NCBI GenBank assembly: GCA_025999335.1
Contig: AP024681.1
Location: forward strand, 322,565-386,564
Reading direction: 5' to 3'
Source: Candidatus Parcubacteria bacterium
GTDB lineage: Bacteria > Patescibacteriota > Minisyncoccia > UBA6257 > HR35
Length of the DNA: 64,000 nt
Shown piece by piece: positions 37,251 through 41,747 of the stretch (the first letter of the stretch is position 1; each line of letters opens with the position of its first letter). Made by a program: the position numbers and the translations under genes. The notes below the pieces were generated by a model. It did no database searches. It saw only the letters and a program-made list of their open reading frames with translations, and was not told the DNA's origin.

Positions 37251-37973
37251 TTATTTAAAATTACCACAAGCAAAACCTAAAGTGATAAGAGCATCGGTAT
37301 TTTGTAATTTTAGTAATTTTTTGATTTCATCATCATGCAAAGCTCCGGAGATAACACCACCAATATTTTCGTTTGCTAAGCGTAAGCCGAGGCTTTGCGC
37401 ATAAAGTCCGGTTTCAATAAGGATGAATCTACCACCGCGTTCACCGTATTTATTAACAGTTCTTTCAGGAATAGCGACAAAAATAAAAAATACCGCGGGT
37501 TCTCCTTCTAATTCTAAGCCAAAGAATTCTTTAATTTCATTCCATTCAGGGCAATTTGTTACTATTGAGAGAGAATGATTGTCGGCATTATAGTAGACGA
37601 TTTTTTTGTTTAATTTGCTTTTAACATTAAATAAACAAGCAAAAACTTCAATAGGATATTTGCCGCCAGCTGATGGTAATAATCTTTTTGTTGAATTTTG
37701 TTGAGCAAAAGCATAAAACAATGACCCTAATTGTTTTTCTGAGATAGGCACGCTAGAAAATTCTCTAGTACTTTTTCTTTGAGACATTATATAGGCTAGA
37801 CGATCTTTAGGCTTTTTTAAAAATAAATCTTCACTAGGGTAAAAAATTTGGGGTATGGTTTTAAAAGTTCGAGCATCTTCTATGAGATTTTTGATTAATT
37901 TTAAAGATGTTTGCTTGTTTAGTTTAGAATTTTCCCAGAACAACCTAAAAAGATCTGCTTTGTTTTCGTCCAT
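37251..37973 (-). CDS. SagB/McbC-type FMN-dependent dehydrogenase (azoline oxidase) of a TOMM-like cluster
   Basis: 240 aa nitroreductase-fold protein with the SagB-type motif PSAGGKYPIEVF and an RKSTREF segment. Adjacent to the YcaO gene on the same strand. Confidence 0.65.
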   Translation of the reverse strand: MDENKADLFRLFWENSKLNKQTSLKLIKNLIEDARTFKTIPQIFYPSEDLFLKKPKDRLAYIMSQRKSTREFSSVPISEKQLGSLFYAFAQQNSTKRLLPSAGGKYPIEVFACLFNVKSKLNKKIVYYNADNHSLSIVTNCPEWNEIKEFFGLELEGEPAVFFIFVAIPERTVNKYGERGGRFILIETGLYAQSLGLRLANENIGGVISGALHDDEIKKLLKLQNTDALITLGFACGNFK

Positions 37974-37977
37974 TGTT

Positions 37978-39234
37978 TTATCCTAAAGGATGAGGCAATT
38001 TATTTGGAAATTCGACTTGATTAACTAAATCAGGATATCGCCATTTTACATCTGCTGTCCGTCCACCAAGAAAAGGAGCTCGTTCATCGCCGTGAAGCAA
38101 AGATAGCTCTGGAGATAAAACTCTTATTACATTTAAACCAGTTTCACGCACTTCGTCAATGGTTATATCACGATAAAATAGTCTGATGTTTTGTTCTTTT
38201 AATTGTTTAATTAAATTTGTTAAAATTTCAATTGTGTTAGTAGCTTTATTTTCTTGGGCTTGTTTTTGATATGAAAATCGTTTTTTTAACAAGGGAGTTT
38301 TGTGCCATAAGTGTGGATAAAGAGTATAGTAAACGGCATGTTTGTCAAAATCAACAATATCTTCAATTTTATTAAGTTTTAAATCTCTATTATAAAGGCT
38401 ATAAAATCCAGCAAAAATTACCCCTTGAATCCATTCAAGATATGCTTTTTCAATGGCTTCTTCATAAGTTGGTCGACAAGCAACGCCCATTGAAATTCGT
38501 TTTTTATTTCTTAGCGGCAAATGACCACAAACAATAACAACAGGATGAGGATTCCATTGTTGAGTTATATCAAAACAGAAAATTTCGCCACCCTTTTTTA
38601 AAACAGGATTTGTATATTTTTCATCAAGCTTGATTTCTCTGCCGCCTAAGGAATTAAGCCAATAAACAGTTAAGGCATCTCTTTCTAAGACTTCTTGAAT
38701 CCCCAACAATAAAGCATTGAACTTATTAAAATGAGCCGCTAACCCAGTTGACGTTGAGGGAAGAAAAGCTTTGTTAGATTTTGTGCCTAACCCAATTAAT
38801 TCTTGCGGGACCCAAAATTTTTCGTTATTATACACCGAATAAACTTCGCCAAAAAATGCTTCTTTAATATCAAATTTTTCCCAAGGAAAATTTTTGTTAT
38901 TATACTGTTTTTCTAAAAAAAGAGAAAATTGATCATGGGTAATTATTTTTTCATTTTTTATTTCTGATAATTTTTTAACTGGAAAATTTATTAAAAATGC
39001 CGAATATCTTTCCATAGCTTCAGCAATAGCACTAATAGTTGCTATTTGTTCATCTTGGTTGATCCCACCACTGGCTGATCTCCATGCTTCAATGGAATTT
39101 TCAGGTACAGAAACATTGGCTATATTTTCAATATCTGCAAAAGTGTTTTCAACTTTTTGAGGCGGAAGAACAATCCCGCAACGAAAACTTGTCGCTTTTT
39201 GTAAAACATATTGATTTAAAGTTTTTTTAAACAT
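37978..39234 (-). CDS. YcaO-domain cyclodehydratase
   Basis: 418 aa. YcaO ATP-binding signature ...GGINQDEQIATISAIAEAMERYSA. Pro-rich C-terminus ...FPNKLPHPLG, as in azoline-forming YcaOs. Separated from the SagB-like gene by 4 nt. Confidence 0.75.
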   Translation of the reverse strand: MFKKTLNQYVLQKATSFRCGIVLPPQKVENTFADIENIANVSVPENSIEAWRSASGGINQDEQIATISAIAEAMERYSAFLINFPVKKLSEIKNEKIITHDQFSLFLEKQYNNKNFPWEKFDIKEAFFGEVYSVYNNEKFWVPQELIGLGTKSNKAFLPSTSTGLAAHFNKFNALLLGIQEVLERDALTVYWLNSLGGREIKLDEKYTNPVLKKGGEIFCFDITQQWNPHPVVIVCGHLPLRNKKRISMGVACRPTYEEAIEKAYLEWIQGVIFAGFYSLYNRDLKLNKIEDIVDFDKHAVYYTLYPHLWHKTPLLKKRFSYQKQAQENKATNTIEILTNLIKQLKEQNIRLFYRDITIDEVRETGLNVIRVLSPELSLLHGDERAPFLGGRTADVKWRYPDLVNQVEFPNKLPHPLG

Positions 39235-39361
39235 CGCTATTAATATTTATTCTTATAATGCTTCTTTAAAATTAATCAATAATTTTTTGTTTTTTATAAT
39301 TGCGTAGCATTATTATTGATTAATAAATTAAGATAAACAAGAAAAAAATAATAAAAATTAA

Positions 39362-40189: not shown

Positions 40190-40308
40190 TTTTAAAAATT
40201 ATTTTTTTAAACAATACTTAAATAAACGACAGGTCTAAAAGTTGTCTTGAATATATTTTAAACAATTTTTAAATTTTTTGTAAAAAATATCCCAAACTTT
40301 AACTACCT

Positions 40309-40983
40309 TTAATATTCTGTTTTGCGAGTTTTTAAAATAAGTTTTATTATATAAATAAAACCAGCAATTACTATCCCGCCAGTCGCTATTAACCAGATAA
40401 GTGCATAGTAAAATAAATAATCAAGATATTTATAAACTATCTTCGGAACAACGACAATAGAAGCAAAAAATTCTACAACTACCGAAAGAATTAAAAATAT
40501 TAAACTAAATATTATACGGATAATAAAGGAACGTTTTATTTTTTTTAAAAAATCATATTTTTTATAGAAACCATAAAAGCTTAATTTTATAAATTTTATA
40601 AATATAAATGCAACTCCTATTACTACGATAAATAATATAAAAAATGGGATAGGAAAATAAGAATTAGAATATAATGCTTTCTCGATCATTGCCTGAACCA
40701 TCAATATGACATAAAATATCCCTATAATAAACAGTGATAATATAACTGGCATAAAAAACCCAAATAAATAAGCAGTTCTTGTTTCTTTTGTTTGATTTGA
40801 GGATTCTGTTTCCTCTAATTGCTGTTTTTTAACTAAATTACTTAAATTTCTGCCTGATAAGTGAGAAATAGTTAAAGTAGATATTAAACACGAACAACAA
40901 CAACAGCAACAAGCACCACAAGTCGGCGTTGACGAACTAACTCTTATTTTTTCATTATCAAACTGGGATATGAGTCGGAGCAT
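40309..40983 (-). CDS. poly-Cys (SLS-like) precursor-like N-terminus fused to a polytopic membrane domain, paralog B
   Basis: 224 aa: MLRLISQFDNEKIRVSSSTP-TCGACCCCCCSC-LISTL..., then about 5 predicted TM helices. First gene pair of the operon that contains YcaO and SagB. Confidence 0.5.
   Translation of the reverse strand: MLRLISQFDNEKIRVSSSTPTCGACCCCCCSCLISTLTISHLSGRNLSNLVKKQQLEETESSNQTKETRTAYLFGFFMPVILSLFIIGIFYVILMVQAMIEKALYSNSYFPIPFFILFIVVIGVAFIFIKFIKLSFYGFYKKYDFLKKIKRSFIIRIIFSLIFLILSVVVEFFASIVVVPKIVYKYLDYLFYYALIWLIATGGIVIAGFIYIIKLILKTRKTEY
40917..40983 (-). repeat. 67-nt perfect direct repeat, copy 2 (5' end of substrate gene B)
   Basis: Identical to 41681-41747: CACAAGTCGGCGTTGACGAACTAACTCTTATTTTTTCATTATCAAACTGGGATATGAGTCGGAGCAT on the plus strand. 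Confidence 0.85.
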
Positions 40984-41024
40984 ATTTTTATATAATTCTT
41001 TGTTAATAATAATAAAAAACTATT

Positions 41025-41747
41025 TTAATAAATTTTAACTTCATCGTTGCCATTAGATTTAAAATGTCGATTTTTCAAAATAAAGTTTATAGTTATATAA
41101 ATAAATCCAATAATCGCTATACTGATGATTGATATTAAAGATATTATTATGTAACGCTCTAACAAAGTAAGATTAAATAATAATAGTCCAATAAAGAAAC
41201 CGGTAGCAAAAAATTCTATAGTACCAGCAAGAGCTAATAATCCGATATTGTTAATTATGATTTTGATTAAAGTAGAAAGCTTTGTTGTTTTAAAAAAATC
41301 ATATTTTTCGTTGAAACCATGAAGACTTAGTTTTATAAATTTTATAAGCAGCAATAAAACAATTATTGCTGTTGCATATAATGATGTACCATAAAAGATA
41401 TCGGGAGTAAGAAGATATTTTCCATTTTCAATTATTGTTATAATTGCAGATAAAGTTATTATTATTACAGCGCCCGTTGTTACAGCAAGCAATGATACTA
41501 TAAGTAACATAAAAAAGCCGAAAAGATAAGCGCTTTTAGTTTCTTTTACTTCAATTGATGGCGTTGCTTTCTCTAGTTGCTGTTTCTTAACTAAATTACT
41601 TAAATTTCTACCAGTAATATGCAACACAGCTAGAGTAGATATTAAGCACGAACAACAACATGAGCAACAGGCACAAGGACCACAAGTCGGCGTTGACGAA
41701 CTAACTCTTATTTTTTCATTATCAAACTGGGATATGAGTCGGAGCAT
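41025..41747 (-). CDS. poly-Cys (SLS-like) precursor-like N-terminus fused to a polytopic membrane domain, paralog A
   Basis: 240 aa: MLRLISQFDNEKIRVSSSTP-TCGPCACCSCCCSC-LISTL..., then several TM helices. The first 22 codons are nucleotide-identical to paralog B. Confidence 0.5.
   Translation of the reverse strand: MLRLISQFDNEKIRVSSSTPTCGPCACCSCCCSCLISTLAVLHITGRNLSNLVKKQQLEKATPSIEVKETKSAYLFGFFMLLIVSLLAVTTGAVIIITLSAIITIIENGKYLLTPDIFYGTSLYATAIIVLLLLIKFIKLSLHGFNEKYDFFKTTKLSTLIKIIINNIGLLALAGTIEFFATGFFIGLLLFNLTLLERYIIISLISIISIAIIGFIYITINFILKNRHFKSNGNDEVKIY
41681..41747 (-). repeat. 67-nt perfect direct repeat, copy 1 (5' end of substrate gene A)
   Basis: Identical to 40917-40983. Covers the start codon and the leader-like segment. 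Similarity continues imperfectly through the Cys-rich core. Confidence 0.85.

Follow-up and report, generated by a model that had tools for sequence, protein, structure and literature searches.

Chemistry of the YcaO enzymes, as known from the thiazole/oxazole-modified microcins (TOMMs), has so far been understood almost wholly as a route to diffusible peptide natural products. The best-described systems with discrete enzymes, those of microcin B17 (McbBCD), streptolysin S (SagBCD) and plantazolicin, employ the same trio, composed of an E1-like leader-binding partner with four cysteines (Cys4), a YcaO protein with a Pro-rich end and a flavin mononucleotide (FMN) dehydrogenase with a Lys-Tyr pair. 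Enzymes of the McrA type work with a TfuA partner, introduce a single thioamide and have no dehydrogenase. YcaO proteins are also known to act on full-length proteins, as in the formation of thioglycine in McrA and in the thioamidation of uL16 (PMC13063428). Unusually large precursors were also described, and in the NHLP/Nif11 group the large domain is a soluble N-terminal leader that is removed, with the core at the C-terminal side (PMC12455567). Here we analyse a cluster of genes in a stretch of 64,000 nucleotides from a Candidatus Parcubacteria bacterium (assembly GCA_025999335.1, contig AP024681.1, positions 322,565 to 386,564, read on the forward strand), which is referred to as the window and whose own numbering is used below. 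We consider it probable that this cluster is a four-component TOMM-type system in which the substrate is a small integral membrane protein and the resulting polyazole stays attached to it.

The cluster comprises five co-directional genes on the minus strand, bounded by a tRNA-Pro(GGG) gene (37170-37245) on one side and by a divergent gene of the TIGR00375/PHP type (41843-43120) on the other. Two of the five are paralogs that encode the putative substrates. Substrate protein A (41025..41747, 240 aa) begins with a leader and a Cys/Ser core, continues with a follower helix and a linker, and has a polytopic membrane domain after these. Family alignments delimit its leader to residues 1-20 (MLRLISQFDNEKIRVSSSTP, 41688..41747), followed by the core in residues 21-34 (TCGPCACCSCCCSC, 41646..41687), where azol(in)e formation is predicted to occur, and hydropathy segments locate the membrane domain at approximately residues 70-226 (41070..41540), where it aligns with its paralog and with the core of three transmembrane (TM) helices shared by the family. 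Substrate protein B (40309..40983, an open reading frame (ORF) of 224 aa) has the same architecture, with a core in residues 21-32 (TCGACCCCCCSC, 40888..40923), as seen from the ORF, the DNA and the family alignment, and a membrane domain of four predicted helices in residues 76-216 (40336..40758). The remaining genes encode the E1-like partner, or C protein (39362..40189, 275 aa), which is SagC/ocin-ThiF-like, contains two CxxC motifs and is a putative leader binder; the YcaO cyclodehydratase, or D protein (37978..39234, 418 aa), with the C-terminus FPNKLPHPLG; and the SagB-type FMN dehydrogenase, or B protein (37251..37973, 240 aa), with its Lys-Tyr pair inside the motif PSAGGKYP. In the DNA of both paralogs no stop codon interrupts the frame between the Cys-rich segment and the hydrophobic domain. 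The chance expectation for at least 8 Cys within 14 residues is approximately 3e-5 per window of that size, and six-frame translation of the whole stretch revealed Cys-dense segments only in the two substrate cores and in one antisense frame, the latter inside a low-complexity region of a large surface-protein gene. Substrate A is identical to the public entry BCX15469.1, annotated as a hypothetical protein of Candidatus Parcubacteria bacterium KatS3mg097 and encoded on a 680-kb contig.

In regard to the modifying enzymes, comparison with protein families identifies them as the TOMM set, with the SagC, SagD and SagB types as their best families. The YcaO protein matches PF02624 with 129.6 bits (cut-off 25.7), and its best NCBIfam family by far is the SagD-type TIGR03604 (183.7 bits, which does not reach the subfamily cut-off of 219). 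Scores for non-azoline types are much lower, being 58 bits for the McrA-thioamidation type TIGR03266 (cut-off 365) and 12 bits for the S12/RimO-accessory type NF040716 (cut-off 700). A Pro-rich C-terminal motif is typical of azoline-forming YcaOs, and the C-terminal PHPL is invariant in all 24 relatives compared, 23 of which end with PHPLG. Profile searches of the PDB matched this protein to MusD, TruD, LynD and McbD, and it belongs to a tight subfamily in which identity remains 40-69% across very distant taxa. Many YcaOs of this clade (P0009, P0013, P0030 and others) were automatically named 'ribosomal protein S12 methylthiotransferase accessory factor' by JGI/IMG, a generic label that is misleading in view of the very low NF040716 score. 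The dehydrogenase matches PF00881 with 54.5 bits and has SagB TIGR03605 as its best family (66.1 bits, below the cut-off of 78.4). Its Lys-Tyr pair corresponds to residues 105-106, and among its nearest solved relatives in the PDB are BmdC, a thiazoline oxidase, and McbC, an azoline dehydrogenase.

The C protein of the window had no significant match in Pfam and matched TIGR03882 (27.6 bits, cut-off 36.9) and TIGR03603 (20.5 bits) weakly, only at the C-terminal side and in both cases below the cut-off. TIGR03882 is the family of 'TOMM precursor leader peptide-binding protein', and it is matched by all 46 inspected relatives of the C protein, with the best E value of 1e-13. Furthermore, a profile built from these 46 relatives matches the E1-like domains of TruD (E 4.8e-9), LynD, MusD and MccB over a region spanning both CxxC motifs, C178/C181 and C253/C256, whose four Cys are invariant in the family. 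A single-sequence AlphaFold2 (AF2) model of the C protein has a mean confidence (pLDDT) of 43 and is confident only in residues 10-50, which form a beta-beta-beta-alpha pattern. Taken together, all three window enzymes score below the curated NCBIfam cut-offs and thus represent a divergent clade of TOMM B, C and D proteins without being textbook members.

The original prediction for this cluster, made from the sequence of the window alone, proposed an azol(in)e biosynthetic operon with membrane proteins as substrates. Its description of five co-directional genes between the tRNA-Pro and the PHP gene agrees with the coordinates given above, and the segments it quoted, namely MLRLISQFDNEKIRVSSSTP followed by TCGPCACCSCCCSC, the TCGACCCCCCSC core and PSAGGKYP, are correct, as are the two CxxC motifs and the Pro-rich C-terminus of the YcaO protein (FPNKLPHPLG). 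Its assignment of the trio to the TOMM set is borne out by the family matches (184 bits for TIGR03604, TIGR03605 as the best family of the dehydrogenase, and TIGR03882 in 46/46 C relatives). It had also named ways in which it could fail, and two of them are answered by the same scores: the YcaO protein is closest to the SagD type, with both the thioamidation and the RimO-accessory families far behind, and the dehydrogenase is of the SagB type instead of being a generic nitroreductase.

The architecture of the substrates was observed throughout the family. The leader of approximately 20 residues has the motif M-x-[RK]-L-x-x-Q-F-D, in which M1 and F8 are invariant in the family alignments and L4, Q7 and D9 nearly so. 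It is followed by a pre-core ATP(T/S)CG, replaced in Proteobacteria by AAGGG, and by core columns occupied only by C, S or T with few G, the last residue being an invariant Cys followed by [ILV][IVA][ST]. Then comes the follower, an Ala/Ser/Thr-rich helix which often ends with AR, and a positively charged linker of variable length. The proteins of many members from the candidate phyla radiation (CPR), the Firmicutes and the myxobacteria have a conserved S-A-R-N/S-x-G after the follower segment, and the post-core 'AR' motif is absent from Beta- and Gammaproteobacteria. The membrane domain is built around a shared core of three helices, with a Pro in the first helix in 30 of 34 sequences and an intramembrane Glu in the last one in 27 of 34 (the others having a Glu nearby). 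Some members, including both window proteins, have additional helices, giving 3-5 helices overall. Possible homology of this domain to SagE (CPBP/Abi), holins or CrgA was considered and dismissed, the matches being sub-threshold and at chance level. The substrate family has no model in Pfam (2025) or NCBIfam (June 2026), and its members are listed in public sources as 'hypothetical protein'.

The composition of the core differs among taxa. Patescibacteria, Firmicutes, Myxococcota and Actinomycetota have a poly-Cys core, and in Proteobacteria the core consists mostly of Ser/Thr (e.g., GGGSTSTTCSSC), the range of variation being illustrated by CCCCCCCC and STSTTCSSC. At the same time, the longest unbroken C/S/T run counts 9 residues in 46 of the 71 proteins from the inspected loci and 8-10 in 65 of them. 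In the protein library introduced below it counts 8-9 in 104 of 146 representatives (range 7-13), and in 28 of these, as well as in most proteobacterial loci, it is mainly Ser/Thr with only 2-3 Cys. Substitutions limited to the heterocyclisable residues C, S and T at a constant length suggest that the run is the target of the enzymes, and we regard this as the strongest argument at the sequence level; the same pattern argues against a thiolate metal site.

The two window paralogs share 53% identity at the protein level, and their first 67 nt (40917-40983 and 41681-41747) are 100% identical, without synonymous differences. The remaining parts of the two genes have 33-94% nucleotide identity, with the membrane domains diverged to 33-78%. 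Such a distribution points to gene conversion or to a very strong constraint at the nucleotide level. Among other structural variants, substrates of some Bacilli have an acidic, Asn-rich C-terminal extension which ends with a zinc-ribbon motif CPxCG...CxYCS (CxxC...CxxC, Cys4), as found at loci L011 (7222-8001), L012 (7186-8001), L016 (2817-3632) and L017 (7066-8001), the last of which apparently also has a duplicated pair of membrane helices.

Distribution of the system was examined in a survey with one genome per GTDB species, in which the YcaO subfamily was confirmed at 273 places, and 80 of them were kept for inspection of the loci. The subfamily is present in Patescibacteria (including Saccharibacteria, Komeilibacteria and Dojkabacteria), Bacillota (Bacilli and Clostridia), Myxococcota/Polyangia, Actinomycetota/Acidimicrobiales, Dormiibacterota and Pseudomonadota (Beta- and Gammaproteobacteria), where the hosts are Bordetella, Achromobacter, Aquabacterium, Aromatoleum, Variovorax and many Stenotrophomonas. 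Wherever the contig permits, nearly all of the 80 loci have the genes for C, D and B side by side, and a scan for the leader-plus-core motif within approximately 4 kb of the YcaO gene detected, in 67 of them, a neighbouring ORF of 122-311 aa with the layout of the window proteins and 2-7 hydrophobic segments. Most of the other loci are cut at a contig end, and in one (L076) a variant of the substrate escaped the motif search. Patescibacteria have the gene order C-substrate-D-B, Bacilli and Clostridia have substrate-D-C-B, and the window has substrate-substrate-C-D-B, and the four stay together throughout; locus L063 likewise has two tandem substrates. Inspection of the flanks, in which protease, exporter and immunity genes were looked for, revealed no gene beyond these four that is conserved with the cassette across phyla.

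When 1.84 billion representative proteins were searched exhaustively with HMMER, 153 substrate clusters were obtained at E <= 0.001, and 146 listed matches were examined after leaving out four query sequences. The QFD-type motif is present within the first 25 residues in 143 of these 146 representatives, their median length is 178 aa, and 141 have at least two hydrophobic segments past the core. Six matches are shorter than 120 aa, but all of them reach past the core to the follower segment, with no protein ending right after the core; at least three (P0153, P0154, P0174) end in a sequence unlike the family. Conversely, substrates found by sequence alone adjoin the YcaO and C genes at L085 and L086, and a third contig is too short to tell. 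Rarity of the family, as could be concluded from a protein search with substrate A that yielded, besides the query, just the paralog and one close relative, or from a 42-sequence N-terminal profile that had one match in a word-indexed database, was rejected in view of the 153 clusters, both results being due to index and E-value limits. Neither in the 80 loci nor among the 146 listed library representatives was a short stand-alone version of the N-terminal part found, a search that the original prediction had recommended for the first 40 residues. One apparent stand-alone precursor of 47 aa, at locus L075, proved to be an artefact of the genetic code, as it extends to 143 aa with membrane helices under translation table 25.

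This last locus (5948-9257) belongs to a Patescibacteria metagenome-assembled genome (MAG) assigned to UBA6164, which uses genetic code 25 with UGA as Gly. Read with table 11, its YcaO gene contains 23 in-frame TGA codons; table 25 leaves no stops in it and also restores the reading frames for the C protein and for the substrate. The closest relative of the window cluster, with enzymes 87-91% identical, was found at loci L001-L004 in Logan assemblies of the SRR277300xx runs. There, a frameshift breaks the single substrate gene (L001, 910-1652) into 168 + 75 aa, and the YcaO gene (2754-4009) is split into 91 + 285 aa; the 168-aa product was seen in at least four samples, and either gene decay or a systematic homopolymer error could be the reason. 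Furthermore, a 3-kb contig binned as Methanobacteriaceae (L013, CAZHBQ010000152.1) carries a cassette of the Bacilli type. Its YcaO is 56% identical to that of the window and close to those of Bacilli MAGs from the rumen and gut, and mis-binning is likelier than an archaeal occurrence. In approximately 30 beta- and gammaproteobacterial loci, a membrane protein of the PAP2 superfamily (about 210-240 aa, motif PSLH...TWQHxxxD) directly adjoins the cassette, for example at L055 (5730-6386, minus strand), L035 (5776-6423), L059 (5942-6661) and L033 (10122-10748). It was found neither in the window cluster nor in the inspected flanks of other phyla, and such a neighbour suggests a possible link to membrane lipids. 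No matches to PADLOC defence systems and no plasmid-borne copies of the cassette were detected.

The position of the core relative to the membrane was predicted from an AF2 model of substrate B, based on an alignment of 100 sequences. The model has a mean pLDDT of 76, with the leader and the core being of low confidence and mostly unstructured, and contains helices at residues 28-58, 64-105, 112-142, 151-183 and 187-223; a fold search of the PDB with this model gave no significant match (best E 1.6). The first of these helices, which lies after the core, has a mean hydropathy of 0.82, compared to 2.2-2.9 for the membrane helices, and would for this reason not span the membrane in the window proteins. 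The last four helices were taken as membrane spans for the count of charges. The N-terminal tail, the loop between TM2 and TM3 and the C-terminus together hold 8 + 8 + 3 = 19 Lys and Arg residues, in comparison to 1 + 2 = 3 on the other side of the membrane. According to the positive-inside rule, such a bias predicts that both termini are inside and that the whole tail of 75 residues, composed of leader, core and follower, is cytoplasmic. This orientation would fit the need of cytoplasmic enzymes for access to the core, and it agrees with the zinc ribbon of some Bacilli substrates, a C-terminal Cys4 element of the type found in the cytoplasm.

From all of the above, we infer the following course of events. 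The N-terminal tail of the substrate would be located in the cytoplasm, where its leader would be bound by the C protein, as suggested by family membership of the latter. The YcaO protein, using ATP, would then cyclodehydrate contiguous Cys, Ser and Thr residues to azolines, as its family and motifs indicate, and the FMN dehydrogenase would oxidise azolines to azoles. The product, a rigid and hydrophobic polyazole of approximately nine rings, would remain covalently attached, acting in cis on the membrane of the producing cell itself, at its cytoplasmic face or inserted into that face, as a built-in prosthetic element. In the window, one enzyme set would serve two substrates. The sequence analysis itself shows the content of the cluster, the families of its enzymes, their conserved linkage to the substrate gene, the layout of the substrate and the pattern of residue substitution, and from these the chemical steps, binding of the leader, topology and retention of the product are deduced. 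The individual parts of this proposal are not equally firm. That the membrane-fused proteins are the TOMM substrates is very probable, because the fusion is conserved beside the enzymes across phyla and no stand-alone peptide accompanies them. Retention of the product on the membrane protein is somewhat better than an even bet and is the likeliest outcome because the system is accompanied by neither a protease nor an exporter and because the membrane domain itself is conserved. Finally, a polyazole that is never released, forming a permanent, rigid rod of about nine contiguous conjugated azoles on the cytoplasmic tail of a dedicated small membrane protein with a conserved intramembrane Glu and performing an intrinsic membrane function in the producer, has roughly equal chances of being right or wrong; the candidate roles for such an element would be insertion into or passage through the bilayer, handling of ions or electrons, and sensing.

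Several other explanations of the same locus should be weighed against this proposal. One idea is that the fusion is a product of assembly or annotation, with a stop codon or frameshift overlooked between a peptide gene and a membrane-protein gene; a missed stop codon was named in the original prediction as a way in which it could fail. The broken ORFs of L001-L004 do testify to problems with the reading frame in this lineage, but the break at L001 is located far downstream, within the membrane domain and away from its junction with the core, the frame is open through both window paralogs, and the architecture is continuous in 67 independent genomes and 153 library clusters obtained from many phyla, with many assemblers and at many GC contents, which makes an artefact practically negligible as an explanation. 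It is also conceivable that the Cys-rich N-terminus is a site for binding of metals or Fe-S clusters, or for S-acylation, and that the TOMM enzymes act on some other, unrecognised peptide. Poly-Cys tracts are indeed able to bind metals, and the tie between the enzymes and the membrane protein is itself read from sequence. However, runs dominated by Ser and Thr are incompatible with a conserved thiolate site and correspond exactly to the residue set of an azole-forming YcaO. A different peptide finds no place in the data either, as the membrane-protein gene is the only further gene that always occurs with C, D and B over the three gene orders, the motif scan around YcaO gave no candidate shorter than 122 aa except the L075 artefact, and the six-frame translation contains no further Cys-dense segment in a real ORF. 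We regard this combination as very improbable.

A more serious alternative, although still an unlikely one, is that of a pro-toxin, in which the membrane domain would be a carrier or a module for export or self-protection, and an unlinked protease would free a cytolysin or bacteriocin similar to streptolysin S after heterocyclisation. The core does resemble the contiguous Cys run of SagA, several members having weak TIGR03602 matches (13-17 bits), the S-A-R-N/S-x-G past the follower is conserved in many members, the window holds housekeeping membrane proteases (M50 and FtsH), and the AAGGG at the end of the proteobacterial leader resembles a double-glycine site. Against this, the 'AR' motif is missing in Beta- and Gammaproteobacteria, a protease, an ABC exporter or an immunity gene is conserved with the cassette in no phylum, the predicted orientation leaves the core in the cytoplasm without a signal peptide, and the membrane domain keeps its own conserved Pro and intramembrane Glu. 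Peptides of microbial warfare usually have hypervariable cores, but the length and composition of the core are here unusually uniform across phyla. In regard to retention of the polyazole, which we still prefer, the same observations also count on the opposite side: an unlinked protease could still cleave the substrate, M50 and FtsH being encoded only 7-9 kb away, and AAGGG at the end of proteobacterial leaders is similar to a double-glycine cleavage site. Other points likewise weigh against our proposal. The heterocycles of the product are a prediction, and chemistry of a divergent clade could differ from that of the known enzymes, for example by stopping at azolines or by modifying some residues only. 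The topology is predicted by a simple count of charges, and by crude hydropathy the core together with the follower scores as a possible membrane segment in many relatives.

Related to this, several claims of the original prediction gain a different standing. Its central idea of membrane proteins as substrates very probably holds, given the fusion conserved beside the enzymes across phyla, and so do its remarks that an exporter, a leader peptidase and an immunity gene are missing in and near the cluster and that no system of this kind has been described, as far as the open-access literature, Pfam and NCBIfam are concerned. On the other hand, the proposed membership in the streptolysin S family is not supported, with a TIGR03602 score of 17.2 bits against a cut-off of 35, a precursor that is not short, and no sagE-I genes. 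The proposed link to a host-attached bacterium with a reduced genome does not hold either, as free-living Stenotrophomonas, Bordetella, Achromobacter and Aromatoleum, myxobacteria and actinobacteria carry the system as well. Of the functions put forward, a surface element or contact-dependent cytolysin disagrees with the topology check, which by the positive-inside rule predicts a cytoplasmic location for the leader and the core, and handling of metals by Cys is unlikely in view of the proteobacterial members, which swap most Cys for Ser/Thr. The mass shifts it listed for an experiment, -20 Da for azoline and -22 Da for azole, should be corrected to -18 Da and -20 Da per residue, respectively.

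The surroundings of the cluster are mostly composed of housekeeping genes (a ClpB-like ATPase, LytR, a Mur ligase, an M50 protease and FtsH), accompanied by the gene for a large surface protein. The M50-family intramembrane metalloprotease and FtsH, located at 48884-49492 and 49496-51313, appear to be housekeeping genes and are not conserved alongside the cassette in other loci, but they are the sole nearby candidates for processing of a membrane-protein substrate. Directly downstream of the cluster, past the tRNA-Pro, lies the gene for a secreted/surface protein of 2410 aa (29647-36879), with GC content of 0.37-0.39 compared to about 0.29 for the rest of the window; the protein includes a low-complexity region of poly-Thr/Gly and, at its C-terminal side, two repeats of approximately 60 residues that resemble each other. 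Promoter and terminator scans detected sites in numbers no greater than in shuffled sequence. In the short divergent intergenic region upstream of substrate A, an imperfect hairpin rich in GC, with a T-run following it (GGCGAACA...TGCTCGCC TTCTTTTTT), is present on the minus strand at 41800-41845. It overlaps the TTG start listed for the PHP-type gene, which is thus probably placed too far upstream.

No description of such a system was found in the open-access PMC and bioRxiv literature or by a term search of the 2015 paper on the TOMM genomic landscape. Its predicted enzymology is already familiar, being that of the BCD synthetases of the microcin B17 and streptolysin S type, and the unfamiliar features are an integral membrane protein as a substrate, with the core between the leader and the membrane domain, the conservation across phyla, and a fixed core of approximately nine residues. 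If the polyazole is indeed never released, this protein would be the first integral membrane protein known to carry a ribosomally encoded polyazole, and the system would be the first of the TOMM type with a product other than a diffusible natural product. A clade which spans phyla, whose sole conserved substrate is an integral membrane protein and which lacks machinery for release or export, would mean that azole formation also serves in maturing membrane proteins. Furthermore, keeping about nine heterocyclisable residues while Cys switches to Ser/Thr suggests selection for a product of defined geometry, which is unusual for this class of peptides. Genome-mining tools that seek short precursor ORFs probably overlook the substrate of this clade. 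As its hosts include culturable and genetically tractable bacteria (Stenotrophomonas maltophilia, S. rhizophila, Achromobacter, Bordetella and Aromatoleum tolulyticum), the system is directly testable.

Compared with the TOMM systems that use discrete B, C and D enzymes, the window cluster encodes the same trio, its E1-like member being a putative leader binder, and likewise an N-terminal leader and a Cys/Ser/Thr-rich core next to it. However, here the core continues in frame into a conserved polytopic membrane domain of 100-250 aa, a leader peptidase, an exporter and an immunity gene are missing, the core is nearly uniform across phyla and not hypervariable as in those systems, and the enzymes form a separate divergent clade with all scores under the curated cut-offs. 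The resemblance to SagA (TIGR03602) consists of a short N-terminal leader placed directly before a contiguous Cys run, and contiguous heterocycles would in both cases be expected to be membrane-active. SagA precursors are approximately 50 aa long and secreted, whereas the proteins studied here are longer (224 and 240 aa for the window pair, 122-311 aa at the inspected loci), are predicted to be membrane-integral, and have the motif L-x-x-Q-F-D instead of the SagA leader. In addition, the sag operon includes the CPBP/Abi gene sagE, sagF and the ABC exporter sagGHI, none of which was found in the window cluster or its flanks, and no flanking gene is conserved across phyla.

The NHLP/Nif11 precursors are the closest in overall size, also being far longer than the classical precursors from which ribosomally made peptides with post-translational modifications arise and having a folded domain and an azoline-forming YcaO (PMC12455567). 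Here, the arrangement is the opposite, with a short leader of about 20 aa, a core beginning at residue 21 and ending by residue 34, and a large, membrane-embedded domain C-terminal to it, and no NHLP or Nif11 family matches were present among the window proteins in Pfam and NCBIfam. The S12/RimO-accessory YcaOs are a poor counterpart, with NF040716 far below its cut-off. The YcaO proteins of the McrA type also differ, as the window cluster has an E1-like partner and a SagB-type dehydrogenase and no TfuA, and its YcaO scores far under the cut-off of TIGR03266. Nevertheless, the enzymes acting on McrA and uL16 are precedents for what is proposed here, namely a functional protein which is modified and keeps its modification, with no peptide being released.

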